From positions 450,928 through 514,927 of the forward strand of contig OZ244856.1 of NCBI GenBank assembly GCA_965220995.1: a DNA stretch of 64,000 bases, written 5' to 3'. This DNA is from Acidimicrobiia bacterium. GTDB taxonomy: Bacteria; Actinomycetota; Acidimicrobiia; Spongiisociales; ZC4RG35. The stretch's first letter is position 1. Every line of letters starts with the position of its first letter. Below the pieces are notes generated by a model. The model searched no databases and was not told the origin of the DNA. It was given only the letters and a program-made list of their open reading frames with translations. Shown here piece after piece: positions 3,681 through 63,721 of the stretch. The translations under genes were made by a program, and so were the position numbers.

Positions 3681-3700
3681 TCCAGTAAGCTTGAGATAGT

Positions 3701-3714
3701 CCTGAGCGCTCAGG
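3701..3714. terminator. Weak palindromic hairpin between the convergent MMPL and amidohydrolase genes.
   Basis: CCTGAGCGCTCAGG self-complementary 14-mer. No strong U-tract. Confidence 0.2.
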
Positions 3715-3778
3715 TCTGTGTTGCCCTCTCCCGCCGGGAGCAGGGACCTGGTGGCCGGCTGGGATGGACGATCGGCGT

Positions 3779-5143: not shown

Positions 5144-5413
5144 GGTTGGGGAGTCTAATTTTTGCCGGAGAACCAAAGGCAAAGCAGTGAAAAGAGAGGC
5201 TAACCTGTGAAAACCGTGCTGGGTTTTCCCCCCAATGGGTTCCCTCCCCCGCCACCTCCTAACCGGGATCAGGGCGCGTTTGGGCTAGGCCTGGAATAGG
5301 CGCCTTTGCAGTTTATGATCCCCGGTGCGGTCCGAACGACGTCGGAGCGGGCCGCCCTGGTATTTCAGCTACCTACCAGTGTGCAACAGGGGTAGGACAG
5401 AATTCAACCCCGG

Positions 5414-6499
5414 TCAGCCGGGATTTTTCGCGGGCCGGGAAAGTTTCAGGGGCGACAGAAAACGATTGCGAGGCGCAGCCACCAGATCAACCGGCTCGGC
5501 CACCTTCTCCACGGTCACCCGATCGGCCCCGATCATCCCGCCGATGCGATGAGCCTGCGTTTCGACAGCATCCCAGCGACGGGATCGCCAAGCCGAAAAG
5601 GGCGCCACCTTAATCTCCAGCCGGCGGTCGGAGGCACCCAGATCCCAGACTCCCACCACTCTTCCACCGTCCAGCACCACCGAAGTTGCGTTGCCGAAGC
5701 GGTCGTAGGCAAAGGGATGGTGAGCGCTGTCAAGCAGGTGGTCCCGTTCCCGGTGGGCCACCATCAGGACATCCCAGACCGGCAGAAGGCGCAGACCCTG
5801 CTGCAGGCGCATCGAGCCCTCCCGGCCCCAATCCAGGCCATCTGAAGCGGCCCGGGTTTCGGCCACCGTCCACCCGGCCCACCAGCGCAGATCCGGCAAG
5901 GTAGCAGGTCCGTAGGCTGCCAGGTAGGACTCCGCCAATCGTCGCCGGGCTTCGACCTCATCAATCGCGTGGGGATCAATGTCCGGCAGCCAATCGGCCC
6001 AGCGGGCGTAGGTCAAACGGTTGGATCGCCACCCGCCGGTGGTGGCGGCCCGGACTATGCGGTACTCGGATGCCATCATGGCCAACAAGGCCCCGAAATA
6101 ACGTCCGATTCTGCGGTCCGGATCCACTCTCGCCCGCAACCCGGCGGCGGACCGCGGGCCATGGGCCAAAGATTCTTCCACCAAGGGGGCCCACCTTGAG
6201 TAGTCGTCCGCCAGGCGACGGCGATAGGCGGAACTCCAACTCTGGTTCTGACGGCGGGTGGCCGCCAGCACCACTTCCAGCAATCCCCGGGGCAAAGCAT
6301 GCACCGATCCCCGCATGGCTCGCACCCTGACCAGCGACCGGTCTGCATCCAGGGCGTGGTCGAGATAGACCATCCGGTACCCGTTCATTCTGGCCAGAGC
6401 GGAGAGGTGACAGGTCGGCGCCACGCCATAGATACCCACCGAACGACCCACCACCCTCAAGAGATCCGCCGTGCCCAATTTCAAACTGTCCACTGTCAT
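5414..6499 (-). CDS. Winged-helix DNA-binding domain protein of the YcaQ/AlkZ DNA-glycosylase-like family (DUF1006).
   Basis: 361 aa. The N-terminal region (VRAMRGSVHALPRGLL and surrounding) resembles the HTH_42/AlkZ-like fold. Family assignment is from sequence-pattern memory only. Confidence 0.5.
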   Translation of the reverse strand: MTVDSLKLGTADLLRVVGRSVGIYGVAPTCHLSALARMNGYRMVYLDHALDADRSLVRVRAMRGSVHALPRGLLEVVLAATRRQNQSWSSAYRRRLADDYSRWAPLVEESLAHGPRSAAGLRARVDPDRRIGRYFGALLAMMASEYRIVRAATTGGWRSNRLTYARWADWLPDIDPHAIDEVEARRRLAESYLAAYGPATLPDLRWWAGWTVAETRAASDGLDWGREGSMRLQQGLRLLPVWDVLMVAHRERDHLLDSAHHPFAYDRFGNATSVVLDGGRVVGVWDLGASDRRLEIKVAPFSAWRSRRWDAVETQAHRIGGMIGADRVTVEKVAEPVDLVAAPRNRFLSPLKLSRPAKNPG

Positions 6500-6670
6500 G
6501 CCTGGTCGTGGCGCCCCGGTCCCGCTCGCCGTCTACTCCCGACCGGCGCCCACCGACACCGGCCAAGCCCCCGACTCGGCCTTGCACCGCCCGGGCCCGG
6601 TCCGTCTGTTAATTTTGGCGCCATCATCGACCAGCCGATCATCGACCTCCAAAGGTACCCCAACTGGGTT

Positions 6671-7507
6671 GTGTGCGCCGACAATGCCGACATTCTGCCA
6701 AAGCTCCCCGACCAATCTTTCCGTCTGATCTACATCGACCCGCCGTTCAACCGCGGCCAGGTCCAACGCAAGGTAACCGTGCGAACCGAACGCTGCGACC
6801 AGGGGGACCGCACCGGATTCGGGGGAAGGCGCTACAGGACCGTCCAAGTCGGCTCCACTTCCTACGTGGACAACTTCGACAACTATCTGGAGTTCCTGGC
6901 GCCGAGACTTGAGCAGGCCCGTCGGCTGCTGACCCCGGACGGCACCCTCTACTTCCACATCGACTACCGGGAGGCCCATTACTGCAAAGTGCTGCTGGAT
7001 CAGATCTTCGGTCGGGAGTGCTTCCTGAATGAAATCATCTGGGCATACGACTATGGGGGTCGTTCCAAGAGCCGGTGGCCGGCCAAGCATGACACCATCC
7101 TGGTGTACGTCAAGGACCCCCACCGGTATTTCTTCGACCAGGACGCCATCGAAAGGATCCCCTACATGGCGCCCGGCCTGGTCTCCGCCCAAAAGGCGGC
7201 CCGGGGCAAGCTACCCACCGATGTCTGGTGGCACACCATCGTGCCCACCAACGGTCGGGAAAAGACCGGTTACCCCACCCAAAAGCCCGAAGGAATCTTA
7301 CGCAGAATCCTGATGGCCTCATCGCAGGAAGGCGACCGGGTGCTGGACTTTTTCGCCGGTTCCGGAACCACCGCGGCGGTGGCTCAGCAACTGCACCGCC
7401 GTTTCGTGATGATCGACAACAACCCGGCAGCCATGGCGGTTATGACCCAACGCCTGGGATCAGCCGGTATCAAGTTCGTTCATTCCTCCGACCTGCCGGA
7501 AGCCTGA
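6671..7507 (+). CDS. Site-specific DNA methyltransferase, beta class (N6-adenine or N4-cytosine). No adjacent restriction endonuclease.
   Basis: Motif IV DPPF (LIYIDPPFN) lies N-terminal to motif I (VLDFFAGSGTTAAVA), which is the beta-class order. The N-terminus resembles CcrM-like enzymes. Start set at in-frame GTG 6671; the track ORF begins at 6299 but would overlap the divergent upstream gene. Confidence 0.75.
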   Translation: MCADNADILPKLPDQSFRLIYIDPPFNRGQVQRKVTVRTERCDQGDRTGFGGRRYRTVQVGSTSYVDNFDNYLEFLAPRLEQARRLLTPDGTLYFHIDYREAHYCKVLLDQIFGRECFLNEIIWAYDYGGRSKSRWPAKHDTILVYVKDPHRYFFDQDAIERIPYMAPGLVSAQKAARGKLPTDVWWHTIVPTNGREKTGYPTQKPEGILRRILMASSQEGDRVLDFFAGSGTTAAVAQQLHRRFVMIDNNPAAMAVMTQRLGSAGIKFVHSSDLPEA

Positions 7508-7528
7508 CAAGCCGGGAACCACCCGGTT

Positions 7529-8077
7529 TCAGACAAAGTCCATGGCGGGGAGACCGTCCAGGCTGACGGTGTTGTTCTCCCTCTGGTATTCCCACATGGC
7601 GTCGGGTCCCTTGCGTTCCGCCCAGACCGGCAGGTAGTCCCGCTGTGCGACCATTTCCATCAGTGGCACGCCGCCCCCGCACGAGGTCCCCACCTTGTTG
7701 ATGTCCACCCGGATGATGGAACGGGACCCGGGAATCTCACTGAAGCTCTCCGACAGAACGGCATGCTCGGCCGTTCCCGGGTAGAGCGCCCGGCCTCCCC
7801 CCCAGATCCGCAGAATCCGGCGCGGCTGATCGAACCCGCAGAACATCACCACGATCCGGCCGTTCTGGCGCAGGTGGGCGATGGTCTCGGCGCCGCTTCC
7901 CACCAGATCCAGATAAGCCACCGTGTCAGGGTTGATGATCCGAAAGGTGTCCAACCCCTTGGGCGAGAGATTGATGTGCCCCTCCTCGCCCGAAGGGGCC
8001 GTCGCCACGAAAAACATGGGTTGGGCGCCGATCCAGGCAGCCAGATGCTTGGGAATGGATTCGTAGTAGGAAGCCAT
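7529..8077 (-). CDS. Pyridoxamine 5'-phosphate oxidase-family (FMN/F420-binding split-barrel) protein.
   Basis: 182-aa ORF with a PNPOx-like fold pattern (HINLSPKG...RIVVMFCGF). Convergent with the methyltransferase. Confidence 0.55.
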   Translation of the reverse strand: MASYYESIPKHLAAWIGAQPMFFVATAPSGEEGHINLSPKGLDTFRIINPDTVAYLDLVGSGAETIAHLRQNGRIVVMFCGFDQPRRILRIWGGGRALYPGTAEHAVLSESFSEIPGSRSIIRVDINKVGTSCGGGVPLMEMVAQRDYLPVWAERKGPDAMWEYQRENNTVSLDGLPAMDFV

Positions 8078-8109
8078 GGCCTATGGGGTTGACAAGCTCG
8101 GGACGGGCG

Positions 8110-9978
8110 TCAGGCCGTCAGACAGAGACGATACTCGGTGTCACGGCGGGCAACCGGTCGGTTGCGGTCCCGGGCGGTTCGCTCGAAGTCGGAAGGATCC
8201 ATCTCCTGCCCATGGGCGGCCCCCGCCGATCGGGTGATGATCTCTCCCATCAGGGTGCCCCCCAGGTCATTGCACCCCGCATCCAGAAGACGCCCGGCCC
8301 CCTCCAGCCCCAACTTCACCCATGACGCCTGGATATTGGGCACCAGCCCGTCCAGGGCGATCCGGCCCACCGCGTGGATCAGCACCACTTCATCCCAGGT
8401 GGGACCGGGTCGCGCCTTGCCGTTCAACCAGATGGGGGCCCCCATGTGGACAAACGGAAGCGGCACCAACTCGGTGAAGCCGCCGGTCTGCCTTTGAATC
8501 TGTCGGATCACCTCCAGGTGCCGGGCCCAGGAACGATGATGATCTATGTGCCCGAACATGATGGTGGCGGTGGACCTCAGACCCAGTTCGTGGGCGATGA
8601 GCATGACCCTCGCCCATTGGGAGGTGCGGATCTTGTCGGGGCAGAGAAACCGCCGGACATCGTCGTCCAGGATCTCGGCGGCGGTTCCGGGAAGGGTACC
8701 GAGGCCGGCGTCCTTGAGACGGACCAAGAACTCCCTGACAGACACACCCGCAGTTTCGGCGCCCTGCCAGACCTCCAGCGGGGTGAACCCGTGAATGTGC
8801 ATGTCGGGCAACTCCGCCTTGATCGCTTCCGTTACCGAAACATAGAAATCTCCGGTGAACTCGGGATGGATGCCTCCCTGCAGGGTCACCTCGGTGGCGC
8901 CCCGGTCCCAGGCCTCCCGGGACTTCTGCACGATGTCGGCAATCGACATCAGGTAGGGGTCCCCTCGCAGATTGAGGCTGCGGGGACCCTTGGAAAAGGC
9001 GCAGAACCCACACCGGAAGTAACACATGTTGGTGTAGTTGATGTTGCGGTTGATCACATAGGTGACCAGATCACCCACCACCCGTTGGCGCAACTGGTCG
9101 GCCGCCCACGCCACCGCCTCCACCTGATCGCCCCTTGCTCCGAACAGGGCCTCGGTTTCATCCACCGTGGGGGCGGCGCCGTCCAGGGAACGTTCCAGGA
9201 TGGGCCGCAGCTGCCCGGCGCCTTCCAATTCGGGCGGCCCGTCCGACCCCACCCACAGGGAATCAGGCCACTGGGCCGAGAAACGGCGGGGAGGAACCGG
9301 CGCCTCCTCGGCCCGGCCGGGCGCCCAACCGTAACGAGGGCGGGCCGCTGCACCGGCGTCCACCTGCTGGAGCCACGCCCGGAAGGCGCGGCGCGACAGC
9401 GTTGCGCGCACCTGGTCTATTTCCAAACCGGGCGGAAGGGCCGTTCGCTCCACCAGCGTCATCGGCGCCAACCGCCGGCGTAACTCGCCGATGCGTCCGG
9501 CATCCCAGTCTCTCAGCAACAAATCGCAAGCCCCTGCCCACACCGCTTCGGCGGCCTGGTCGACATCGTCCACAAACACCGAGACCCTCGCCTCCACCGA
9601 GGGCAGTCCGCACAGAGCCGCCGCGGCCTCCACCTCGCTTCGGGTGGTTCTCAGAAAAGACGCCTCGCTTCTGGCCAGGGCGTCCAGCACCAGATCCTCG
9701 TTGCCGGTATGCACCACCGTGATAAGCCAGCCCGGCAACCCGGCCTTCGCCAATTCCAACGCCCCGGAGGGATCGGCGATCCGAGGCGCCTCCGACACAT
9801 CCGCCTCACGGGCGGCGATCAAGACCCCGGCCCCGTGGGCGGCCCGCAGGTCGTGGGGGGTGGGAGCATCCATCTCCAAGGTGGTGGTGCCCTCCCGAAG
9901 ACGCGCATCCGCCACAGCCTCGGTGGCCTTCTCCGCCGGGCGGGTGCGCAAGAAAGTGATCATCGAAGCCCTGCCCAA
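8110..9978 (-). CDS. cofH: FO synthase subunit CofH (radical SAM) with a roughly 250-aa N-terminal extension of unknown function.
   Basis: CxxxCxxC radical-SAM motif CYFRCGFCAF at about aa 319-326, followed by a CofH/FbiC C-terminal-half-like sequence. GC3 is high across the N-terminal 250 aa, which suggests it is translated. Confidence 0.7.
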   Translation of the reverse strand: MGRASMITFLRTRPAEKATEAVADARLREGTTTLEMDAPTPHDLRAAHGAGVLIAAREADVSEAPRIADPSGALELAKAGLPGWLITVVHTGNEDLVLDALARSEASFLRTTRSEVEAAAALCGLPSVEARVSVFVDDVDQAAEAVWAGACDLLLRDWDAGRIGELRRRLAPMTLVERTALPPGLEIDQVRATLSRRAFRAWLQQVDAGAAARPRYGWAPGRAEEAPVPPRRFSAQWPDSLWVGSDGPPELEGAGQLRPILERSLDGAAPTVDETEALFGARGDQVEAVAWAADQLRQRVVGDLVTYVINRNINYTNMCYFRCGFCAFSKGPRSLNLRGDPYLMSIADIVQKSREAWDRGATEVTLQGGIHPEFTGDFYVSVTEAIKAELPDMHIHGFTPLEVWQGAETAGVSVREFLVRLKDAGLGTLPGTAAEILDDDVRRFLCPDKIRTSQWARVMLIAHELGLRSTATIMFGHIDHHRSWARHLEVIRQIQRQTGGFTELVPLPFVHMGAPIWLNGKARPGPTWDEVVLIHAVGRIALDGLVPNIQASWVKLGLEGAGRLLDAGCNDLGGTLMGEIITRSAGAAHGQEMDPSDFERTARDRNRPVARRDTEYRLCLTA

Positions 9979-23672: not shown

Positions 23673-23846
23673 GTGCAGCCCGGTTCCTGTTTCCCCGATC
23701 TGTTCCTGTCCCATTCCCTGAATTAAGGAAAGCGGGTGTGACAGGTCAAGCACTCACCGGAGTTTCTCGGTGGAACGCATACCGGCGGCCACCGGCGCAA
23801 TCAGCCTTCTCCCCCCGACAGGGATACCGGATAGGGGCCGGGCGGC

Positions 23847-24113
23847 AATCTGTGAAATCAGACACTATGTCGCGAAACCGCCCCCGAAATTCCTGTCCCG
23901 AGGGCCCGCCCCCGCCACCACCTTTCCTGGGGTCGGGACGCGAATCCACCATACAGAACGAGGATTTCGTATTCCCAACAATATGGTCCCTGCGGCCGGT
24001 CTGGACGACGTCGGAACAGACCGGGAGGTGCTTGACTCCTATCACTATGTGACACCCGGGAGACAAAGTCAAGCCAAGAGCCACCCTGTTTTTCGCGACC
24101 CTCCCCAATCACC
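23847..24113. repeat. Copy A of a conserved ~268-nt intergenic structured element; candidate ncRNA or MITE-like repeat.
   Basis: About 90% identical to 63256..63524 in the same orientation. Shared ends: aatctgtgaaatcagacactat at the left and ccctccccaat at the right. Terminal inverted repeat GTCGCGAAA / TTTCGCGAC. Internal hairpin CCGGTCTG...CAGACCGG is identical in both copies. A second hairpin keeps its stem but has a different loop sequence in the two copies. Confidence 0.6.
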
Positions 24114-24168
24114 TATCCACGCAGTCTCTAAGAAACCCCGGCATGTCGGTTATCCGCTTGGCTCCCGG

Positions 24169-41075: not shown

Positions 41076-42247
41076 ATCTCCCGAAGCACCTCTTCGGTGT
41101 CCTGGCCAACCTGGGGAGCGGGCCGAGGAGGGAGACGGCCTTCTCCAAACTGAACAGGATGAGACGCGGACAGGTACTCGCCCACTCCGGGGTGGGCCAC
41201 CGGGCGGAGCAACGGATTGGCCTCCGAACCGCGGGGATCCTCGGTGACCAGTTGTCGGAAACTCTGGTAAGGCCCCCAGCACAATCTGTGCCGGCCCAGA
41301 ACCTCCCCCACCTCATCCAGGGTGCGGGAGGCGAACCAGGGGGCCAGCGCCGCCGAGATCTTATCCCGCGCCCGGAAGCGGTCGCCCTCGTTTTCCAGAT
41401 CGAGGCCGCATTCGGCTGCTATCCGTTTCATAGCCTCGGCCGAACCGGTGGCCTCCACCAAATCGCCCCACTGCCGATCGGTGATCACCACCACCATCAC
41501 TCTTCGGTGGTCGGCGGTGGCGAAATCCCGCCCGTAGGCGCCGAACACATAGTTGCCGTAGGAACCGCGTTCCTCCTGGTTGATCACCACCTCCCCCAAG
41601 TGACCCAGGGCAGAGACGGTGGCCAGAGCCACATCGAACAGCGAAAGCCGCACCAACTGCCCTTCCCCGGTGCGCAGACGGTGGCGGTCGGCTGCCAGGA
41701 CCGCGGAGGCCACCATGTTCCCGGCGATCACATCCCACGCCGGGAGGACGTGGTTGACCGGCCCGGCATCCGGGGATCCGGTGATCTCCGGATAGCCGAT
41801 CGCCGCGTTGACCGTGTAATCCACCGCCACCGAGCCGTCGGGATTTCCCCGCAGCGCCACCATGATCAGGTCGGGCCTTTTCTCGACCAGCCTTTGGTAG
41901 GACAGCCATCGGGGAGACAGGTTGGTTATGAGAATGCCGGCCTCCTCCCCCGGGGCGCAGATCAAATCGATCAGCGTCGATCGTCCCTCCGGGGATCGCA
42001 GGTCCAGGGCGACCGAGCGCTTACCGGCGTTGAGTCCGGCCCAGTAGAGACTCCGACCCTCGGCGGTGACCGGCCATCGACCGTAGTCGAGTCCCCCTCC
42101 GGGGGGATCCACGCGTATGACGTCCGCGCCCAGTGAGGAGAGGGTGAGGCCCGCCAACGGCACCGCCACAAAGGCGGACAATTCCACCACCCGCATGCCC
42201 CCGAGAATCCCTTCGGTCGGGTTGTGGAGGGTCTTTTGGGATCCCAT
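41051..42247 (-). CDS. Family III CoA-transferase (CaiB/BaiF).
   Basis: RVVELSAFVAVPLAG...LGADVIRVDPPGGG N-terminus and the CoA-transferase III interlocked-domain pattern. Start chosen at Met 19 of the track ORF. Confidence 0.7.
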   Translation of the reverse strand: MGSQKTLHNPTEGILGGMRVVELSAFVAVPLAGLTLSSLGADVIRVDPPGGGLDYGRWPVTAEGRSLYWAGLNAGKRSVALDLRSPEGRSTLIDLICAPGEEAGILITNLSPRWLSYQRLVEKRPDLIMVALRGNPDGSVAVDYTVNAAIGYPEITGSPDAGPVNHVLPAWDVIAGNMVASAVLAADRHRLRTGEGQLVRLSLFDVALATVSALGHLGEVVINQEERGSYGNYVFGAYGRDFATADHRRVMVVVITDRQWGDLVEATGSAEAMKRIAAECGLDLENEGDRFRARDKISAALAPWFASRTLDEVGEVLGRHRLCWGPYQSFRQLVTEDPRGSEANPLLRPVAHPGVGEYLSASHPVQFGEGRLPPRPAPQVGQDTEEVLREILGGSASG

Positions 42248-42276
42248 CCCCTCAAGCCTACGATTCGCAGGCGGAC

Positions 42277-43875
42277 TTGACAGAACACGACACCTCGGCA
42301 ACCGCGGTCTGCGCCGCGGCCCTGGAGAACACCGCCGGCACGGCGGTCGACCGGTTGAGGACGGTGGCCGATCGCCATCCCCAAGGCTTGGACGGTTGCC
42401 AGAGCCTCGCCTACCAGGTGGCCTTTCTGGCGTCGGAGGCAGCCGAAATGCAGGCCGTGAACCAGGCCGTCACCCTGGGACGGATAGGGCCGGCCACCGC
42501 CAACCTGGCCGCCTCTCTTCTGGCCCGATCGGCGCGGGAGCGAGTCGGTCGGTTCGAGGAGTTGGAGGGCATCTCCGAGCCTTGGCTGGACACCGCCGTG
42601 GTGCGGAAGGCAATCACCGCCTGGAGCCGACTGTCGGCGCCGACTCTGGCCGAAGCCGAGAATCCCCCCGATCCGGGACTGGGCGCCGAACTGCTCCTGG
42701 CCCGCCGGGAGTTCCGCAGATTCGGCCGGGAGGTCATCGCACCCCATGCCGAGCAGGTTCACCGCCAAGATCGCGACGTACCCGAGGAAGTGATATCGGG
42801 CCTGGCCGGCCTGGGGGTGTTCGGCTTGTCGATCCCGGTTCGCTACGGGGGTTTTCTGGACGAAGACCATCCTCCCCACCTGGGAATGGTGGTTGCCACC
42901 GAGGAACTGAGCCGCGCCTCCCTGGCTATCGGAGGCTCGCTCATCACCCGCCCGGAGATGCTGGCCCGCGCTCTTCGCCGGGGCGGGACCGAAGCCCAGA
43001 AGACCAGGTGGCTTCCGGCTATCGCGTCGGGCGAGAAGATGGTGGCTATCTGTGTCACCGAACCCGACTTCGGCTCGGATGTGGCTTCGATCACCACCGC
43101 CGCCCAGCGGGACGGAGACACCTGGGTCATCAATGGCGCCAAGATGTGGTCCACCTTTGCCGGGCGGGCCGAACTTCTCATGGTGCTGGTCCGCACCCAT
43201 CCCGATCCCGCCCGCGGCCATCGGGGCCTCTCCCTGTTCGTGGTGGAAAAACCCGCCTTCGGAGGCCACACCTTCACCTTCGCCCAGCCGGGCGGAGGGA
43301 GGCTTTCGGGACGGGCCATACCCACCATCGGCTACCGGGGCATGCACAGCTTTGAGTTGAAGTTCGAAGACTGGGTGGTTCCCTCGGACGCTTTAATCGG
43401 CGAGGAGGAGGGGGAGGGAAGGGGGTTTCACCTGCAGATGCAGGCCTTTTCCACCGGGCGGCTGCAAACCGCCGGAAGAGCCCTGGGTTTGATGGAAGCG
43501 GCCTTCGAGGAGGCGAGCAACTACGCGGCGGGACGCACAGTGTTCGGCCGGCCGCTGGGCGCCTTCCCGCTCACTCGGGATCGCCTGGCCGGGATGGCCG
43601 CCCGGATCGCCGCTCATCGGGCCTTCGCCTATCAGGTGGCCTCCTATCTCGACCGACCCCGTGGCCAGACCGAGGCCTCCATGGTGAAGGCCCTGGCCTG
43701 CCGGTCGGCGGAGACCATCACCCGCGACGCCATGCAGATGCTGGGAGGGTACGGGTACGCGGAGGAGTACCCGGTCTCCCGGCTGTTCCTCGACGCCCGG
43801 GTCCTCACCATTTTCGAAGGCGCCGAAGAGGTGTTGGCTCTGAAGGTGATCGCCCGCCGACTGCTGGGACCTTAA
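42277..43875 (+). CDS. Acyl-CoA dehydrogenase with an N-terminal extension of about 130 aa.
   Basis: ACAD core from about aa 135 (EVISGLAGLGVFGLSIPVRYGG...). Catalytic region MQMLGGYGYAEEYPVSRLFLDARVLTIFEGAEEV. Start is uncertain. Confidence 0.7.
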   Translation: MTEHDTSATAVCAAALENTAGTAVDRLRTVADRHPQGLDGCQSLAYQVAFLASEAAEMQAVNQAVTLGRIGPATANLAASLLARSARERVGRFEELEGISEPWLDTAVVRKAITAWSRLSAPTLAEAENPPDPGLGAELLLARREFRRFGREVIAPHAEQVHRQDRDVPEEVISGLAGLGVFGLSIPVRYGGFLDEDHPPHLGMVVATEELSRASLAIGGSLITRPEMLARALRRGGTEAQKTRWLPAIASGEKMVAICVTEPDFGSDVASITTAAQRDGDTWVINGAKMWSTFAGRAELLMVLVRTHPDPARGHRGLSLFVVEKPAFGGHTFTFAQPGGGRLSGRAIPTIGYRGMHSFELKFEDWVVPSDALIGEEEGEGRGFHLQMQAFSTGRLQTAGRALGLMEAAFEEASNYAAGRTVFGRPLGAFPLTRDRLAGMAARIAAHRAFAYQVASYLDRPRGQTEASMVKALACRSAETITRDAMQMLGGYGYAEEYPVSRLFLDARVLTIFEGAEEVLALKVIARRLLGP

Positions 43876-43912
43876 GGGGGCATGGGCAAACCCAACTAGC
43901 CTTGTCAGGACC

Positions 43913-44284
43913 ATGGTTGAAGTAATCGAAAAGGGCCATTTCCACACCGGAGATTTTTCCGGGGAACTGACCGCCGCCGAGCAGGGCAATCGGAACATCG
44001 GAACTCGACTGCTGTTCCAAAACGACGAGGTGGGGGTCTGGGAAGTTCGGCTGCAGCCGGGAGAGAGAGGCGGGTTCCATCTCCATGATCGTCACTACTT
44101 TTGGACGGTGGTGAAGGGCGGCATCGGCAAACAGCGCACCGCCGACGGGGTGTATCACATCCGCCGCTACGAGGAAGGCGATACCAGCTTTCTGCCGCAC
44201 AGCCCCGCAGAATCGGTGATCCACGATTTTGAGAACGCCGGAACGGGCGAGATCCGTTTTATAACGGTGGAACTCTACGACTGA
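43913..44284 (+). CDS. Cupin-domain protein.
   Basis: 123 aa with the two-His cupin motif (GGFHLHDRHYFW ... IHDFENAG). Confidence 0.55.
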   Translation: MVEVIEKGHFHTGDFSGELTAAEQGNRNIGTRLLFQNDEVGVWEVRLQPGERGGFHLHDRHYFWTVVKGGIGKQRTADGVYHIRRYEEGDTSFLPHSPAESVIHDFENAGTGEIRFITVELYD

Positions 44285-44327
44285 CCCCCTGAACGCCAAC
44301 CTGCCCACTCGGGTTGCCCGCCGGATC

Positions 44328-45869
44328 GTGGCAGGCCTCCGGGCCGCTGGGACCCGGCGTTTGTTCGGTGTGCCGGGAGGAGGCCCAAACCTGCTGAAGG
44401 TGGGCGCCGCCGCCGAGCAGGGCATTCCCTTTGTTCTCTGCCACAGCGAGACGGCCGCGTGCATCGCCGCCTCGACTTACGGGCTGTTGACCGACACGGT
44501 GGGGACGGCGGTGGTCACCCGGGGGCCGGGCGTGGCGTCGGCCGTGAACGGAGTTGCCCAGGCCACCTTGGACAAGCAGCCCCTGGTGCTGGTGGGAGAC
44601 ACCGTTTCGCAGGCCGACCGCACCTGGGTGGGACACCAGAAATTCGACCAACCGGCAGTGATGCAGCCGGTCACCAAATGGAGCGGCACGGTGGGCCGGG
44701 ACGGGACCGCCCGAGCGGCGGAAGCGGCCGGGCGGCTGGCCACGGCCCATCCCCAGGGCGGGGTACACATCGACATGGACAGCAATATCCCAGGGGACAT
44801 GCCTCCCGATGCCCCGGCTGTGACCGATGGCGGGGCCGTTCCGGAGGCGGTGCGGAAAATGGTGGCCCGATCCTCCTTTCCGCTGTTGATCCTGGGAACC
44901 GGGGCGCTTGGATGGATCGGGGAGGTGAGGAAGGTGGTGGCCGCCGCCGGATGCCCGGTTCTCACCACCTATCACGCCAAGGGCCTGATCGACGAGACCA
45001 CACCCCTTTTCGGAGGGCTGTTCACCAGTTCCTCCTTGGAGGCGCCGCTGCTGCGAGCCGCAGATCTGGTTTTGGCGGTGGGAGTCGATCCCGTGGAGCC
45101 GCTTCCCCGGCCTTTCCGATACGAGGCGCCGGTGGTGGAGATCAACCCCTGGCCCCAACCGCTCCGGTTTTTCCCCGGGCGGCGCCGGGTTGAGGGGCCG
45201 GTGGGTCCGATCCTCGGGTCTCTGGCCGCCGATCTGGCCGAACATCGATGGGACCCCGACGCCGGCCGAACGGCATGGCAGGCTGCCCGGCGGTCGCTGT
45301 GGGCCGACGGACCGGGTTTCACTCCCCACCAGGTGGTGCAGGAGGTGGCGAAATGGAGCGCCCGGCAAGAGGATGCCACGGTGACGCTGGATGCCGGCGC
45401 CCACTTTCTGGTGGCCATGCCTTACCTTCCGGCCACCCTGCCCCGCCGGATCCTGATCTCCAACGGTCTCTCCACCATGGGATACGCCCTCCCCGCCGCC
45501 CTGGGCGCCGCCCTGGCTCGTCCGGAGACACCGACCGTCTGCCTGACCGGCGACGGTGGGTTGAGCATGGTCCTGGCCGAGTTGGAGACGGTGGCCCGGG
45601 CCGGGGCGGACGTGACTGTGGTGGTGTTCAACGACGGGGCCCTGACCCTCATAGAACTCAAGCAACTGGCCGGCCAGGGGGGACCGCAGGCGGTGCGTTA
45701 TCAACCCATCGACTACGCCCGGGTGGCTCGATCCTGCGGAATGCCGGGGGTGATGGCCGAAAACCAATCGCAACTGGCGGCCGCCCTGCGCGGACCTCGA
45801 CCCCGCCTGATCGACGCCCGCATAGATCCAACCGCCTACCGAACCGTGATCGAAGCCGCCCGGGGATGA
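44328..45869 (+). CDS. Thiamine-pyrophosphate-dependent enzyme (acetolactate-synthase-like family).
   Basis: N-terminal pyrimidine-binding domain (LFGVPGGGPNLL...FVLCHSETAACIAAST), a middle domain, and a C-terminal TPP motif GDGGLSM...N. GTG start. Confidence 0.7.
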   Translation: MAGLRAAGTRRLFGVPGGGPNLLKVGAAAEQGIPFVLCHSETAACIAASTYGLLTDTVGTAVVTRGPGVASAVNGVAQATLDKQPLVLVGDTVSQADRTWVGHQKFDQPAVMQPVTKWSGTVGRDGTARAAEAAGRLATAHPQGGVHIDMDSNIPGDMPPDAPAVTDGGAVPEAVRKMVARSSFPLLILGTGALGWIGEVRKVVAAAGCPVLTTYHAKGLIDETTPLFGGLFTSSSLEAPLLRAADLVLAVGVDPVEPLPRPFRYEAPVVEINPWPQPLRFFPGRRRVEGPVGPILGSLAADLAEHRWDPDAGRTAWQAARRSLWADGPGFTPHQVVQEVAKWSARQEDATVTLDAGAHFLVAMPYLPATLPRRILISNGLSTMGYALPAALGAALARPETPTVCLTGDGGLSMVLAELETVARAGADVTVVVFNDGALTLIELKQLAGQGGPQAVRYQPIDYARVARSCGMPGVMAENQSQLAAALRGPRPRLIDARIDPTAYRTVIEAARG

Positions 45870-46205
45870 GGTTGGCCGAAACTCGCGAAAAATCCGCCGG
45901 TCCGTGGGTTGACTTCTGTCACACACCTGTTACATAGTGGTTGGATCAAACACCCAGGACGGTCCGCTCCGGCGTCGAGTGGACCGTCCGAAGGTCAGAC
46001 AACTCAGGAAGTCGCTGGTTCCGGCTGGACAAAGCCTTCCTGATCAACGGCAAGGTGGATGGTGGGGGAGGGGCCCGAAAGGGCGGGAAAGCTGGGAGTC
46101 AGTTTTCGCGAGATAGTGTGTGATTTCGCGGATGTTGGCCGTGACGGGACGCCACCGTCCCCGATGGGTAATCTCCCCTGCAAACCAATGAGAGGAGGTA
46201 TCTCC

Positions 46206-46736
46206 ATGTCTATAACGGTGGCTCAGTTCCTGGATGTCGCTGACGGACTGCAACCCAACCAGTTTTCCATTGGCAACCGAGTCCAGATTTCGGGACTGAA
46301 CGATGTCAATCCCGACCACAAGCAGTTGATGGATGACCAGGTGACCGCGGTGATGGCCGTGATGGGCGGAGACGGACGGCCCAACCTGTCCGCCATGTGG
46401 TTCGACTACGACGGAGAAACCAGCCGCGTTCTGGTCAACGTGGCCACCCACCGCAAGAAGACCGCCTGGATCAGGGCAAATCCCCAGATCACCGTCCTGT
46501 TGATGAATCCGGCCAACCCATACCACTGGATGAGCCTCAAGTGCACCGTGGAACGGGAAGTCCTGGAGGACGATCCCGACGAGGGAACGATGGTCACCGA
46601 CCAGTTGGACAAGATATGGACCAAGTACACCGGCGCCGAGCCTCCCTACGGACTGCGGGACCCCTCCATCGACGAACGGCGGGTGCTGTTCATCTGCAAG
46701 GTGGACCGGATCGCCACCTTCGGGAGATCTGCTTGA
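46206..46736 (+). CDS. PPOX-class F420-dependent / pyridoxamine-5'-phosphate-oxidase-like oxidoreductase.
   Basis: 176 aa with an FMN/F420 split-barrel pattern. ATG at 46206 is preceded by GAGAGGAGG; the track ORF begins 49 codons earlier. Confidence 0.65.
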   Translation: MSITVAQFLDVADGLQPNQFSIGNRVQISGLNDVNPDHKQLMDDQVTAVMAVMGGDGRPNLSAMWFDYDGETSRVLVNVATHRKKTAWIRANPQITVLLMNPANPYHWMSLKCTVEREVLEDDPDEGTMVTDQLDKIWTKYTGAEPPYGLRDPSIDERRVLFICKVDRIATFGRSA

Positions 46737-46737
46737 G

Positions 46738-47931
46738 TTGACCCCCAGCCGCTGGCCGAGGGTGGCAGTTATGGGAGGGTCGATCGGCGGGCTGACCGCC
46801 GGTCTGCTGTTGCGCGAACTGGGCTGTCGGGTTGACATCTACGAGCGATCCTCCTCCGCCCTGCAGGACCGGGGAGCGGGCATCATCCTGCTCCCCCACA
46901 CCTACCGCTATTTCGAGGAACTCAGCCCCCTCGACACAAAAGAGGTCTCCATCGCCCCCTACTGGTGGACGTTCCTCGACCGTCGGGGCGGGGTGTTGTC
47001 CCAAAAGCCCCTCGGGTCCCTGATCAGTTCCTGGAACACCATCTACCGGGGGCTGCTGTCCGACTTCGGGAAGGACCACTATCACCTGCGCAAGGAGGTG
47101 ATCGGCTTCTCGCAAACCGATGAGCAGGTGCAGGTGAGGTTTTCGGACGGAGAAGCAGTCAGCGCCGATCTGCTGGTGGCGGCCGATGGCATCACCTCCC
47201 TGGCTCGCTCGATTCTCAATCCCGGGGTTTCCCCGTCCTACGCCGGATACGTAGCCTGGCGAGGAACCATCCCCGAATCGGACCTGACACCCCAGGCCCG
47301 GGAACAACTGGCCGACGCCATGGTCTACTGCCTGATGCCCACCGGACATTCCCTGGCCTACGCCATTCCCAGTCAGTCAGGCAGCCTGGTGGTGGGAGAA
47401 CGGCTGATGAACCTGGTCTGGTACTACAACTGTCCCGGCGGCCCTCCCCTTGAGGCTCTATTGACCGACCGGGAGGGAGACCGGCGGTCTTGGTCCGTAC
47501 CGCCCGGCTTCGTCCGCCCCGAATTGCTGGACACGATCCGCCGTGAGGCCCGAGAAACCATGGCGCCGGTGGTGAGGGAGGTGGTGGACGGCGCCCAGGA
47601 CCTGTTCATCCAGGTGATATTCGATGTGGCGTCGGAGCGGATGGCCCGGGGACGGGTGTGCGTGATCGGCGACGCCGCCTTCGCAGTGCGCCCCCACGCC
47701 GCGGCGGGCACCGCCAAGGCCTGCGACGACGCCTTCGCGCTCAGAGACGCCCTGGCTGCCGAGCAGGGCGATGTGAAAGCGGCGCTCCGGCGTTGGGAAC
47801 CCGGTCGCCTCCTAGTGGGACACAACCTGATCAATCGGTCCCGGTGGATCGGGGAGGCCTATCAAACCCGATTCGATGCGGCGCCCGGTGACACCCGCCT
47901 GCGATACGGCCTGTACGGGCCGGGCAACTGA
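46738..47931 (+). CDS. FAD-dependent aromatic-ring monooxygenase family protein.
   Basis: N-terminal FAD fold RVAVMGGSIGGLTAGLLL, a DG motif (LLVAADGITSLAR), and a GD motif (VCVIGDAAF). Confidence 0.7.
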   Translation: MTPSRWPRVAVMGGSIGGLTAGLLLRELGCRVDIYERSSSALQDRGAGIILLPHTYRYFEELSPLDTKEVSIAPYWWTFLDRRGGVLSQKPLGSLISSWNTIYRGLLSDFGKDHYHLRKEVIGFSQTDEQVQVRFSDGEAVSADLLVAADGITSLARSILNPGVSPSYAGYVAWRGTIPESDLTPQAREQLADAMVYCLMPTGHSLAYAIPSQSGSLVVGERLMNLVWYYNCPGGPPLEALLTDREGDRRSWSVPPGFVRPELLDTIRREARETMAPVVREVVDGAQDLFIQVIFDVASERMARGRVCVIGDAAFAVRPHAAAGTAKACDDAFALRDALAAEQGDVKAALRRWEPGRLLVGHNLINRSRWIGEAYQTRFDAAPGDTRLRYGLYGPGN

Positions 47932-47962
47932 CGGAGGGTCCGCCCCGACTCCGAGCCGCTGA

Positions 47963-48895
47963 TTAACCCCGCAGGGCCGCCAGCATGGCCGAACCCATGT
48001 CGGGTGGAGTGGGGGCGATCTCGATTCCTGCCCGCCGAAACGCCTCTATCTTGCTTTGCGCGGTCCCCTGGCCTCCGGAAATGATCGCCCCGGCATGGCC
48101 CATGCGCTTTCCCGGCGGAGCGGTGAGCCCGGCGATGAACCCCGCCACCGGCTTGGTCATCTCCGAGCGAACGTATTCGGCTGCCTCCTCCTCGGCCGGT
48201 CCGCCGATCTCCCCGATTATCAGAACCCCCTCGGTGGCCGGATCGGCCTGAAACAGACGTAGTGCGTCCACGAAGCTGGTTCCGTTGACCGGATCTCCCC
48301 CGATGCCCAGCGCGGTGGTTTGCCCCAGTCCCAGGTTGGTCAGTTGGTACACCGCTTCGTAGGTGAGGGTCCCCGACCGGCTGATCACCCCCACCCTTCC
48401 CCGGGAGTGGATGTAGCCCGGCATTATCCCCAGCTTGCATTCGCCGGGAGTGATCACCCCCGGGCAGTTGGGACCCACCAGGCGGGAGGGGCGGGAACCC
48501 AGGTAGTTCTTCACGGTCACCATGTCGTTGACCGGCACTCCCTCGGTGATGCACACTATGAGCCCCACACCGGCTTCCGCCGCCTCCATGATGGAATCCG
48601 CCGCAAAGGGAGGCGGAACGAAGATCAGGGTGGCGTTGGCGCCGGTGGCGTCCACTGCTTCGCTTACGCCGGAAAACAAGGGCAGGTCCACCTCGAAGGT
48701 GTCGGACCTCCCCGGGACCCCGCTGTGATCAGTGGCGCCCGAGAACTGCTGGGTTTCGCCCGCTCGGCGGGGATGAACCCCGGCCACCACCCGGGTTCCG
48801 TAGGCGATGATCTGCCGGGTGTGGAACTGTCCGGCCCGGCCCAAACCCTGAACCAGCAGCCTGGTGTCCCGGTTGCAGAGAATGCTCACCGGCAC
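47963..48895 (-). CDS. sucD: Succinate--CoA ligase alpha subunit.
   Basis: CoA-binding and ligase-CoA domains. Phospho-His loop SRSGTLTYE. 10-nt overlap with sucC. Confidence 0.9.
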
Positions 48896-50106
48896 AACTC
48901 CACAATCCGGCGGGCGCCGTCCGCCATGTCGGTGGCCGAGATGACATCAAGCCCCGAGTCGGCGATCATCCTGCGGCCCAGGTCCACATTGGTTCCCTCC
49001 AGCCGGACCACCAGGGGCACCGACAGTCCCACCTCCTCGGTGGCGGACAGCACGCCCTGGGCAATCACGTCGCAGTGCACGATCCCCCCGAAGATATTCA
49101 CGAAGATCCCTTTGACGTTGGGATCGGCGGTGATGATCCGAAAGGCGGTGGCCACCCGTTCCGCATCGGTGTCGCCACCCACGTCCAGGAAGTTGGCGGG
49201 GGTGCCCCCATAGTGTTTCACGATGTCCATGGTGGCCATGGCCAGGCCGGCGCCGTTCACCATGCATCCGATCTCTCCGTCGAGTTTCACGTAGTTGAGG
49301 CCCGCTTTCCGGGAGGTGCTCTCGGCGGGATCCTCTTCGCTCTCGTCCCGCATCCGGGCCACCTGCGGGTGCCGGTAGAGGGCGTTGTCCTCGAACGAGA
49401 CCTTGGCGTCGAGCGCCACGGCCTGCCCCGCAGAATTGATCACCAAGGGGTTGATTTCCAACAGTTCGGTGTCAAGGCTGGTGGCTGCCGCCACCACTTT
49501 CTCCACCAGATCGGAGAACGAGGCGGCCACCTTCCCGGAAAGACGGAGGCGGCGGGCAAGGCGCCGCAACTGGAAGGGCCGAACTCCCACGCCCGGATCG
49601 ATGGTCTCGGTCACCAGTTTCTCGGGAGACTCGGCCGCCACCTGCTCGATCTCCACCCCTCCCTCCACCGAGGCCAGGATGACGGGACGGGAGACTTTGC
49701 GATCCAACTGCACGGCAAGGTAAAGCTCCTGGGATATGTCCACCCCCGCCTCCACCAACAGTCGATTCACCACCTTGCCCGATGGTCCGGTCTGAACGGT
49801 GACCAGCGTCGAACCGAGCATCTTCTCGGCCAAAGCCAACATTCTTTGGCGCATCAGGTGTTTCTGACCCGAGGCCACGATGTTCACCCCTCCGATTCCC
49901 GCTTCGGCGTGTTCCAGAAAGCGCCCCTTGCCGCGGCCGCCGGCATGGATCTGCGCCTTGACCACCACCAGGTACCCGCCGGTTTCCTCCAAGAGTTCCA
50001 CCGAGGCGTCGGCCGCATCCTCGGGAGTGAAGACCGCCCTCCCCGACGGCGTCGCCACGCCATGGGAGGCGAGTAGTTCCTTGGCCTGATGTTCGTGAAT
50101 GTTCAC
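48886..50106 (-). CDS. sucC: Succinate--CoA ligase beta subunit.
   Basis: ATP-grasp N-terminus [12 protein letters not shown] and ligase-CoA C-terminus. Confidence 0.9.
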
Positions 50107-61617: not shown

Positions 61618-63237
61618 ATGAGCAAAACCCTTCACTCCGATCTTGAGATTTATGACACGACCCTGCGTGACGGCGCCCAGCAGGAAGGCATTTCTCTCAC
61701 GGTTTCCGACAAACTGAGGATTGCCTCGCTGCTCGACTCGCTGGGCGTCCACTACATCGAAGGCGGATGGCCGGGCGCCCTTCCCAAGGACAACGAGTTC
61801 TTCGCCCGCGCCAAGACGGAACTTTCCCTCTCCAACAGCCGACTGACCGCTTTCGGGTCGACCAGGCGGCCGTCCCGGAGGGTTGACACCGATCCCCAGT
61901 TGCGCTACCTGCTGCAAGCCCAGACGGAGGTGATCTGCATCGTCGGAAAATCCTGGGATTATCACGTTCGAGAAGCACTGCGCTGTGACCTCGACGAGGG
62001 GATCCGCATGGCGGGGGAGTCGGTGGAGTTTCTGAAATCGCACAACCGGCGGGTGTTCTTCGACGCGGAGCACTTCTTTGACGGGTACCGGGCCAATCCC
62101 GAATACGCCCGGGCGGTGATCACCGCCGCCTGGGAAGCGGGCGCCGAGCGACTGGTGCTGTGTGACACCAACGGGGGCGCCCTGCCGTCGGAGATCAACC
62201 GCGTCATCGCCGAACTCGGTGAGACCCTGCCCGCCGACGCGCTGGGTGTGCATTTCCACAACGACGCCGGGTGCGCGGTCGCTTCCTCGTTGGCTGCGGT
62301 GGCGCAGGGGGTAAGACAGGTTCAGGGATGCATCAACGGCTACGGCGAGCGGACCGGTAACGCCGACCTCTCCACGGTCATACCCGATCTGGTTTTGAAA
62401 ATGGGCGTCCCGGTGGTGGACACCCGGCGCCTTTCCCGGATTTCTTCGGTTTCCCATCACATAGCCGAAGTGGTCAACATCACGCTCGACCCTCACCGGC
62501 CTTATGTGGGGGCGTCGGCCTTCACCCATAAAGCGGGTCTCCACACCTCCGCTTTGGCCCGCCGACCCGACGCCTACGAGCACGCCCGCCCGGAGTTGGT
62601 GGGCAACAGCACCCGAATGGTCATATCCGAACAAGCCGGAAGAGCCGCCGTGATCCGAAGAGCCGCCGCCCTCGGCCTGGACGTGGACCAGGACGCCGCC
62701 GCCTCGGTGCTGGAACAGGTGAAGGAAATGGAGCATCGCGGCTACCAGTTCGAAGCGGCGGACGGATCGTTCGAGTTACTGGTGAGACGGGTCCTCGGAC
62801 GGCGCCGGGACCTGTTTTCGGCCGCAGGCTTTTCGGTCTCCATTCACCGCCAAAAAGGTCAGGACGAGATTCGGTCTCAGGCCGAGGTGGAGGTGAAGGT
62901 GGGAGATGAGATTCACCGAACCACCGGAGCGGGAGTGGGGCCGGTCCACGCCCTGGACCAGGCCCTCAGGCAGGCTCTTGTGTCGGCCTTTCCGCAACTT
63001 GAGCGCCTGCGGCTGGTGGACTACCGGGTCCGGGTCCTTGATTCCTCCGACGGCACCAGCGCCACGGTGCGGGTCTTGATCGAGACCACCGACGGCGAAG
63101 AATCCTGGGGAACGGTGGGAGTTCACCCCAACATCATCGAAGCCTCCTGGGAAGCCCTGTCCGACGGCCTGACGGTGGGCCTGCTCCGGCTGGGAGATTC
63201 CAAAGAAGCCTCCGGTCCTCAGACGGACAGCGGGTAG
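61618..63237 (+). CDS. cimA: (R)-citramalate synthase (LeuA-family, CimA type).
   Basis: N-terminus IYDTTLRDGAQQEGISLTVSDKLRIASLLDSLGVHYIEGGWPGALPKDNEFF is typical of the citramalate-synthase/LeuA-related clade. 539 aa with a C-terminal regulatory domain. The Ile-codon attenuator upstream fits a role in isoleucine biosynthesis. Confidence 0.65.
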   Translation: MSKTLHSDLEIYDTTLRDGAQQEGISLTVSDKLRIASLLDSLGVHYIEGGWPGALPKDNEFFARAKTELSLSNSRLTAFGSTRRPSRRVDTDPQLRYLLQAQTEVICIVGKSWDYHVREALRCDLDEGIRMAGESVEFLKSHNRRVFFDAEHFFDGYRANPEYARAVITAAWEAGAERLVLCDTNGGALPSEINRVIAELGETLPADALGVHFHNDAGCAVASSLAAVAQGVRQVQGCINGYGERTGNADLSTVIPDLVLKMGVPVVDTRRLSRISSVSHHIAEVVNITLDPHRPYVGASAFTHKAGLHTSALARRPDAYEHARPELVGNSTRMVISEQAGRAAVIRRAAALGLDVDQDAAASVLEQVKEMEHRGYQFEAADGSFELLVRRVLGRRRDLFSAAGFSVSIHRQKGQDEIRSQAEVEVKVGDEIHRTTGAGVGPVHALDQALRQALVSAFPQLERLRLVDYRVRVLDSSDGTSATVRVLIETTDGEESWGTVGVHPNIIEASWEALSDGLTVGLLRLGDSKEASGPQTDSG

Positions 63238-63255
63238 GGGCCGTACGGCCAAGAG

Positions 63256-63524
63256 AATCTGTGAAATCAGACACTATCTCGCGAAAACACCCCTAAAATT
63301 CCTGTCCCGAGGGCCCTTCCCCCGCCACCACCTTTCCTGGGTCGGGACGCGAAATCCGTCATATATTGAACGGGATTTCGCTTTCCCGAGAGTATGGTCC
63401 CTGCGGCCGGTCTGGACGACGTCGGAACAGACCGGGAGGTGCTTGACACCTATCACTATGTGACACCACGGAGACAAAGTCAACCCATCGGCCACCCTGT
63501 TTTTCGCGACCCTCCCCAATAACC
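63256..63524. repeat. Copy B of the conserved ~268-nt structured element; candidate ncRNA or MITE-like repeat.
   Basis: Same orientation and ends as copy A. Perfect hairpin GCGAAATCCG...CGGGATTTCGC. Lies between the convergent 3' ends of cimA and an ABC ATPase gene. Confidence 0.6.
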
Positions 63525-63721
63525 CACCCTCGGCAGGCTTTGGCTGAGATGCAGGTTGAGGATGGGCGCCAACAGCCCGCTCAACCCGGGAAGACGGAAT
63601 GCATCACCATTCCCATAGCTGCGGCACTCTTGCCTTTCCCGTTACCGGTGTTGACTACCACTATGGAGGGTGCCCCGCTTGACATCACGACGGCGGGGAT
63701 CTTCTGTACGGGGCGCCTTGC

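Follow-up and report, generated by a model that had tools for sequence, protein, structure and literature searches.

The Correia elements of Neisseria, the ERIC sequences of enterobacteria, and the BOX elements of pneumococci are short repeats that lie between genes and have inverted ends. Mostly long imperfect palindromes of about 100–150 bp, they can fold as RNA, and promoters or terminators can be part of them. In Coxiella burnetii, the MITE family QMITE1 carries sigma-70 promoters and is the source of the small RNAs CbsR3 and CbsR13 (PMC5896051). And in Pseudomonas putida, the insertion sequence ISPpu9 (IS110 family) has an sRNA module, ssr9, which has short boxes on its flanks and whose mobilisation is attributed, tentatively, to the transposase of ISPpu9 (PMC12288879).

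Here we analyse an interspersed element from a 64-kb stretch of Acidimicrobiia DNA (the window). A sequence-only reading of the window had flagged a 33-mer (GTTTTCGCGAGATAGTGTGTGATTTCGCGGATG, read at 46102–46134) upstream of a gene that it called PPOX, and had described it as the end of a third, partial copy of a repeated element. The likeness itself is real. Compared with the reverse complement of the left ends, the 33-mer has 29 of 32 positions in common with copy B (by repeat pairing) and 27 of 33 with copy A (by our own count), and the window contains no further match with three or fewer mismatches, where chance would also give none. The preceding ~50 nt, with a G-rich box and a GCCC-GAAA-GGGC hairpin, can be aligned with the adjacent part of A and B. 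TTTCGCG at 46104 and 46124 makes up the reported direct repeat with a 20-nt period (start to start). The ATG of PPOX, at 46206, is 72 nt downstream of the module, as against the reported 70 or so. That copy A has the matching position upstream of yraN is true only approximately, as 134 nt separate the end of its module from the start called for yraN (23713).

The third copy (copy C) is not partial, however. All ~265 nt of it align with A and B, and its far end is also present: the repeat finder pairs 45883–45915 with 63477–63509 of copy B. The flagged stretch (46053–46134) is the 3' third of this copy. Furthermore, the window has four copies instead of three, copy D having been overlooked; a profile built from the copies (nhmmer) found exactly four full-length members in the window (Table 1). 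In our proposal, the element is a small-RNA gene cassette, complete in itself, that is spreading, or once spread, as a MITE-like non-autonomous element, and the 33-mer is its 3' boundary. We give this proposal an even chance of being correct.

Table 1. Features of the element, with positions in the 64-kb window and the basis for each assignment.
Feature	Positions	Strand	Basis
Copy C, full-length element	45872..46136	+	nhmmer profile positions 6–269 of 269; four-copy alignment; ortholog L002 in a related MAG
Copy A, between lepB and yraN	23847..24112	-	Repeat pairing, alignment, and profile; homology with B out to about 23819–24126
Copy B, between a convergent citramalate/isopropylmalate-synthase-like (LeuA/CimA-like) gene and an ABC ATPase gene	63254..63524	-	Homology with A out to about 63222–63538
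Copy D, between an AlkZ-like (DNA glycosylase) gene and an amidohydrolase gene	5180..5445	-	Profile and alignment; ortholog L008
5' box TCGCGAAAAA, inverted relative to the 3' 9-mers; followed after 16 nt by the -35	45883..45892	+	Invariant in the four window copies
Sigma-70-like promoter TTGACT-18-CATAGT, then conserved TGTCAC	45909..45938	+	Promoter scan (0.1 expected); predicted start near 45945
Structured core (P1, P2, P3, and G-rich box)	45945..46076	+	cmsearch with the full model, 53.4 bits, E = 4e-10
Hairpin P2, GGACGGTCC / GGACCGTCC, loop GCTCCGGCGTCGAGT; family loop TCCGACGTCG containing the palindrome CGACGTCG	45957..45989	+	91–94% of cells paired; 5–7 of 8 pairs changed on both sides
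Long hairpin P3, closing stem TCAGGAAG / CTTCCTGA	46004..46043	+	Covariation of the closing stem across the family
G-rich box GGTGGATGGTGGGGGAGGGG (family consensus GGTGGnnGGCGGGGGnGGG)	46054..46073	+	14 invariant G columns in 26 copies
Variable 3' hairpins, GCCC-GAAA-GGGC and then GAAAGCTG-GGAGT-CAGTTTTC	46073..46107	+	Sequence reading and RNAfold
Box R1 TTTTCGCGA, part of the conserved core	46103..46111	+	Near-invariant in 24 of 26 copies; also kept in the MKWU01 subfamily
Box R2 ATTTCGCGG, direct repeat of R1 at a distance of 20 nt; in the window-type element, the outermost 3' end	46123..46131	+	TTTCGCG in about half of the copies, TTTCACA in the rest
GTTGGCCG, left 8-nt direct repeat flanking C; possible target-site duplication	45871..45878	+	Flank-repeat search
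GTTGGCCG, right copy of the flanking repeat	46134..46141	+	Not conserved in ortholog L002

All copies share one layout. From 5' to 3', it runs TCGCGAAAAA, a sigma-70-like promoter, P2, P3, the G-rich box, and TTTTCGCGA-N11-12-ATTTCGCGA, which is the module that had been flagged. In an alignment of 26 copies, read in the orientation of C, the 5' part consists of TCGCGAAAAA, 16 nt, TTGACTT, a near-invariant TGTCAC, and CAnnnTG, with 17–18 nt between the -35 and the -10. After the promoter come GTCAAACACCTCC, P2 (CGGTCYG / CRGACCG) with its loop TCCGACGTCG, an extra clean hairpin in some copies, and RGAGGTCATA. The 3' part consists of P3 (closed by GGGA...CGCGTCCC), the invariant GGTGGnnGGCGGGGGnGGG, a variable hairpin region, and TTTTCGCGA-gATAG-N5-gATTTCGCGA. 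Two of these parts have further properties that we noticed in passing. The 8-nt palindrome CGACGTCG in the loop of P2 could serve for loop-loop dimerisation or for protein binding. And the G-rich box has the form G2-N-G2-N1-2-G2-N-G5-N-G3 in all copies and could form a quadruplex.

Judging by its match to the consensus (TTGACT-17/18-CAnnnT), the element has its own predicted promoter. TTG, TGTC, and CA...T are invariant in all 26 aligned copies, and the promoter scan called the same site in copy B as in C. The apparent invariance of the -35 region and of the 5' box is biased, because our first search pattern demanded both. Our second pattern used only the hairpin loop, the G-rich box (part of which was required), and TTTCGCG, with the promoter and the 5' box left out, and a promoter-like site is recognisable in the copies that were found without requiring it. 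Among seven copies that were found without requiring the 5' box, it is present in four and is a variant (TGTGAAAA or CACGAAAA) in the other three. We also noticed that the promoter-like site of yraN and the promoter of the element share the arrangement TTGAC-N-TGTCAC; TGTCAC may be a general promoter feature in the source organism.

Members of the family are present in several metagenomes and in no fewer than four to five Acidimicrobiia MAGs. The pattern for the 5' part matched 14 loci in Acidimicrobiia MAGs, and the second pattern matched 29 metagenome loci. (Three matches of the first pattern in Clostridia, L006, L007, and L016, are due to chance, and there is no element there.) Neither pattern had a match in the viral contigs that we scanned. 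A covariance model of the core, which we describe below, had 47 matches in Acidimicrobiia MAGs and metagenome contigs, all of them on the promoter strand, and in the window it found just the four known copies. Rfam 15 (including HEARO, IS605-orfB, 6C, raiA, and 6S) had no match anywhere in the window at the gathering score, and with E up to 10, copies C and A gave only chance-level matches. We found no tRNA or tmRNA, and a search of the literature on the motif and on repeats in Acidimicrobiia turned up nothing relevant.

The core of the element folds into the helices P1, P2, and P3, as shown by covariation. RNAalifold on plain MAFFT alignments gave P2 alone; P3 was misaligned there, so a covariance model was needed. 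We built the model (P1, P2, and P3) from three seed copies, and because the alignment is fitted to this model, it is biased towards the model's structure. We computed covariation statistics on a de-redundant set of 26 copies alongside two kinds of controls: 500 shuffles and slid partners. Standard pairs fill 84.4% of cells (84–85% over two runs), as compared to 73.4% in the shuffles. Both sides have changed in 17 of 26 pairs (17–18 over two runs), which one of 500 shuffles equalled. The number of cells with a both-sided change (67) and the covariation score (0.248, versus 0.122 in the shuffles) were not reached by any of the 500 shuffles, and the maximum score with slid partners was 0.096. All five covariation measures exceed the shuffled and slid controls. 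The closing stem of P3, for instance, occurs as GGGA/TCCC, AAAA/TTTT, GAA/TTC, CGGA/TCCG, and CCGGAAC/GTTCCGG, and P3 segments have a mean folding z-score of -2.7. Some copies have clean hairpin insertions at one junction. Another helix that we considered, between the 5' CACCUCC and the G-rich box, has no covariation, as its 5' side varies and the box is invariant. From the strand on which mismatched pairs are tolerated, we infer that the folded molecule is RNA and not single-stranded DNA: in P2 and P3, which are the well-supported helices, G-U pairs outnumber A-C pairs by 32 to 8 on the promoter strand.

Two copies have orthologs in related genomes. L002 is syntenic with 42123–49596 of the window (82–87% identity) and contains the ortholog of copy C, while L008 is syntenic with 1087–9123 (76% identity) and contains the ortholog of copy D. 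Between C and L002, the motifs and the 33-mer are retained, and P2 has undergone a compensatory swap from G-C to C-G. L002 has also gained a 19-nt hairpin, and its P3 is swapped for a different hairpin. No reading frame is conserved in the element (~265–350 nt), and the indels are not in threes. We also found two copies elsewhere that are split in the region of P3. One (L010:848–4963) is split by 4.1 kb with an IS1-family transposase, that is, an IS1 inserted into the copy. The other (L001:858–2409) is split by 1.5 kb that contains a 241-amino-acid ORF with no Pfam match and a weakly PIN-like ORF. From these two splits, insertion may be preferred, or at least tolerated, in P3.

The two boxes of the 3' module differ in their conservation. 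In the MKWU01 subfamily (see below), R1 is kept even though the 5' box and R2 are both absent, and we assign R1 to the core for this reason. R2 and the 5' box are less conserved than R1: in about half of the copies, R2 is TTTCACA (and TGTGAAA is found at the 5' box). In copy D, R1 and R2 are both of the TTTTCAC type. As TCGCGA is self-complementary, R1 and R2 might have paired in a conserved hairpin, but the change from CGCG to CACA in R2 of half of the copies is never compensated in R1, so they do not form one. This double G-to-A change (TGTG on the other strand) always hits both CpGs together (46127–46130, 23853–23856, and 63263–63266 in the window), as might be expected if methylated cytosines in CGCG had been deaminated. 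The variable hairpins are followed by a near-invariant U-run, TTTT(T)CGCG, and R1 may be the 3' U-tract of an RNA. Stability does not support a canonical intrinsic terminator before the U-run, as the hairpin segment is no more stable than shuffled sequences across the family (z = -0.1).

The sequence-only reading had also suggested that the module might be the recombinogenic end of a mobile element. This is supported in part: the element is discrete and interspersed, the module forms its conserved 3' end, a 9-mer of the module recurs inverted at the 5' end, an orthologous site occurs both filled and empty, and a sister subfamily has inverted ends and CTAG flanks. The role of the 9-mers and the mobilising enzyme are what we infer. 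Insertion polymorphism is one of the hallmarks of a MITE, and it is found between lepB and yraN. The spacer contains the element in two genomes (455 nt in the window and 582 nt in L051) and lacks it in three (128 nt in L050, 10 nt in L053, and 90 nt in L055). L050 is on the same 168,538-bp contig as the orthologs of C and D. The filled and empty spacers are too diverged to align, and they did not give the exact insertion junction. The element is also small, non-coding, and multicopy, as MITEs are (~265–350 nt, with four copies in the window and ~20 in MKWU01). The lepB–yraN neighbourhood is also remodelled in two other relatives (L054:10702–13119 and L052:10654–20567). One of these has an 805-amino-acid ORF with no Pfam match between lepB and yraN, and the other has a giant gene rich in cadherin and fn3 domains (its product is given as 6372 residues) adjoining lepB.

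In the MKWU01 subfamily, the core lies inside a unit of ~350 nt, with ~20 copies at 90–96% identity. The unit has inverted ends (TGTCCYG...CRGGACA) and has CTAG on both flanks. This unit (L021:7165–7515 and ~20 other loci) often abuts a near-perfect palindromic repeat of ~105 nt (AGGGTGCTGA...TCAGCACCCT) that is itself flanked by CTAG, and the two look like MITE types with a common target. The window-type element has a putative terminal inverted repeat of 8–9 bp, TCGCGAAA...TTTCGCGA. Yet the homology of A and B continues for ~30–40 nt further out (23819–23846 and 24113–24126 in A; 63222–63253 and 63525–63538 in B), so the 9-mers are perhaps not the true termini. A second, outer inverted pair, GGRTRGG/CCYAYCC, is present in A and B, and it differs between them in a complementary way (GGATAGG...CCTATCC in one versus GGGTGGG...CCTACCC in the other). 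As for target sites, 8-nt flanking repeats occur in 2 of 19 copies (C and L025), and the longest repeat in 342 controls with mismatched flanks was 7 nt. That these repeats are target-site duplications is only suggestive, as their offsets from the ends of the element are inconsistent. Among ~50 copies, none has a matching transposase adjoining it.

We also considered that the element might act purely at the level of DNA, as a MITE whose hairpins and ends are there for a transposase (which might bind folded single-stranded DNA, for example), with an incidental promoter and no functional RNA. The inverted ends and CTAG duplications of one subfamily and the presence or absence of the element at lepB–yraN are what this predicts. 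Also, folding energy scores the hairpins alike on both strands, the preference for G-U over A-C, in what is a crude strand test, falls to just 44 to 35 if all pairs in the model are counted, and some transposases recognise single-stranded DNA, which would also lead to covarying hairpins. However, the promoter-like site is among the best-conserved parts of the element and is always directed into the structured core. Three helices with conserved single-stranded junctions and an invariant G-rich box go far beyond what transposases are known to need for recognising ends. Compensatory change has kept the structure at orthologous copies that are apparently immobile. And P2 and P3 have the strong G-U preference given above. 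Overall, we consider a purely DNA-level MITE to be unlikely.

Two of the remaining alternatives involve control of the neighbouring genes. All of the copies are intergenic, and by a crude gene call, the element occurs in either orientation with respect to the genes on its flanks. In the window, a co-oriented gene begins within 35–135 nt downstream of three of the four copies. But in ~40% of the family, the downstream gene is convergent (again by a crude gene call); this includes copy B, which faces the 3' end of the LeuA/CimA-like gene. The genes downstream of the other copies are functionally unrelated: they encode a PNPOx-like protein (PPOX is PNPOx_N by Pfam), a UPF0102 protein (YraN), and an amidohydrolase. 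If the upstream gene is co-oriented, then the element usually begins 3–30 nt past its stop codon (45869 versus 45872 in the window; also in L031, L014, L025, L012, and L004). This placement suggests insertion at gene ends or terminators, or else use as a 3' appendage.

One possibility is that the element is a cis-acting, riboswitch-like leader, with a promoter, an aptamer, and a terminator that adjust read-through to a shared signal. Copies A, C, and D do have the order promoter, structured domain, U-run, gene, and the invariant junctions and G-rich box would suit a ligand pocket. But the functions encoded downstream are unrelated, and copy B and ~40% of the family have no co-oriented gene to control. 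Also, we found neither a stable terminator nor an alternative pairing, and the MKWU01 copies act as a transposable unit. We regard a leader as quite improbable.

The sequence-only reading had favoured, as its other option, a promoter or operator: the 33-nt module, with two direct repeats 20 nt apart, would be bound by a regulator that controls PPOX and yraN. The 9-mers are indeed two helical turns apart and conserved between species, and the co-oriented genes near three of the four window copies would fit. However, the module never occurs apart from the whole element, its distance to the next start codon varies widely, and the downstream gene is convergent in ~40% of the copies. Half of the copies have a degenerate R2 (TTTCACA), and the alignment has no conserved -10 in or after the module on either strand; the only strong conserved promoter-like site is inside the element and points into the core. 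Furthermore, PPOX and yraN have promoter-like sites of their own between the module and the start codon. For PPOX, this is a -10-like TAATCT at 46169–46174 (+), ~30 nt before the ATG and downstream of the element, which is kept in L002. For yraN, it is TTGACC-17-TTAATT at 23721–23749 (-), also downstream of the element. Because of these sites, the module is not the promoter of either gene. An operator is very improbable, and in our reading, regulation of PPOX or yraN is not what the element is for. (In L002, TAATCT is conserved together with the Shine-Dalgarno region, and the sequence from the element to TAATCT is not conserved. The site of yraN is placed for a start at or beside the ATG at 23713, which would make yraN a leaderless gene.)

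Least probable of all is an orphan guide RNA of an RNA-guided recombinase or nuclease (similar to the bridge RNA of IS110 or the omega-RNA of IscB/TnpB) that is copied without its protein gene: it would be a ~200-nt structured RNA with its own promoter on a mobile element, for which IS110-linked sRNA modules are a precedent (PMC12288879), but there is no Rfam match (HEARO and IS605-orfB included) even at a permissive threshold, 0 of ~50 copies lie beside a recombinase, TnpB, or IscB gene (the sole transposase being the IS1 that inserted into a copy), and the variable inner segments match their own flanks over 7.5 nt, as compared to 7.7 nt for the flanks of other copies.

Returning to our proposal of a small-RNA gene cassette, the housekeeping RNA polymerase would start ~7 nt after the internal TTGACT-17/18-CAnnnT. 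The predicted transcript would have ~170–210 nt and would contain P2, with the short stem P1 closing it and CGACGUCG as its palindromic loop, followed by the long P3 and the invariant G-rich stretch. The RNA might end at or shortly after the U-run of TTTTCGCG. The box TTTTCGCGA, its direct copy 20 nt further on, and the inverted TCGCGAAAAA at the 5' edge would delimit the cassette. These 9-mers would be the likeliest recognition sites for a protein, supplied in trans, that copies the cassette into new intergenic sites. The RNA probably benefits either the cell or the element, because copies are long-lived at orthologous sites and their structure is preserved there.

More speculatively, the element might represent an undescribed class of structured RNA of ~200 nt, with a kissing-type loop (CGACGUCG), a long variable hairpin, and a G-rich box that possibly forms a quadruplex. 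Selected at orthologous loci, it would be a selfish sRNA gene that borrows vehicles, namely the TCGCGAAA boxes in one lineage and a CTAG-targeting shell with inverted repeats in another, and it would have a new cellular role such as protein sequestration or catalysis. We consider this larger claim possible but doubtful.

If the core is transcribed, then it is a new and sizeable structured RNA family, without an entry in Rfam, from an uncultivated class of actinobacteria. It would also offer a natural experiment, with one RNA module in two mobile shells: old copies have been fixed and have compensatory changes, and young copies are near-identical. Such a combination would allow questions about the spread and domestication of bacterial small-RNA genes to be asked directly. 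For annotation, the element accounts for four intergenic "mystery" blocks of the window, and the end of the repeat should not be mistaken for a regulatory site of PPOX or yraN.

Like QMITE1, the Acidimicrobiia element is a non-coding interspersed element of a few hundred bp, with tens of copies and sigma-70 promoters (predicted, in our case), that is conserved and linked between strains; QMITE1 is transcribed as sRNAs (PMC5896051). QMITE1 is from another phylum, has no sequence relationship to our element, often overlaps ORFs, and has direct repeats of 2–3 nt (PMC5896051). In contrast, all copies of our element are intergenic and have a multi-helix core that covaries across species, and their transcription is predicted. 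With ssr9, our element shares an sRNA gene (predicted, in our case) with its own promoter, short conserved boxes, stand-alone copies, and a spread that is thought to depend on a borrowed transposase (PMC12288879). But ssr9 is beside a transposase gene in five of its eight copies and inserts into REP sequences (PMC12288879), whereas we found no partner transposase for our element, its 9-mer boxes are both inverted and direct, and there is no sequence similarity. Compared with the Correia, ERIC, and BOX repeats as we know them, the Acidimicrobiia element is asymmetric and longer (~265 nt), with a directional promoter, three helices, and an invariant G-rich box. Unlike those repeats, it is kept at orthologous sites between species whose flanking sequences are just 76–87% identical.
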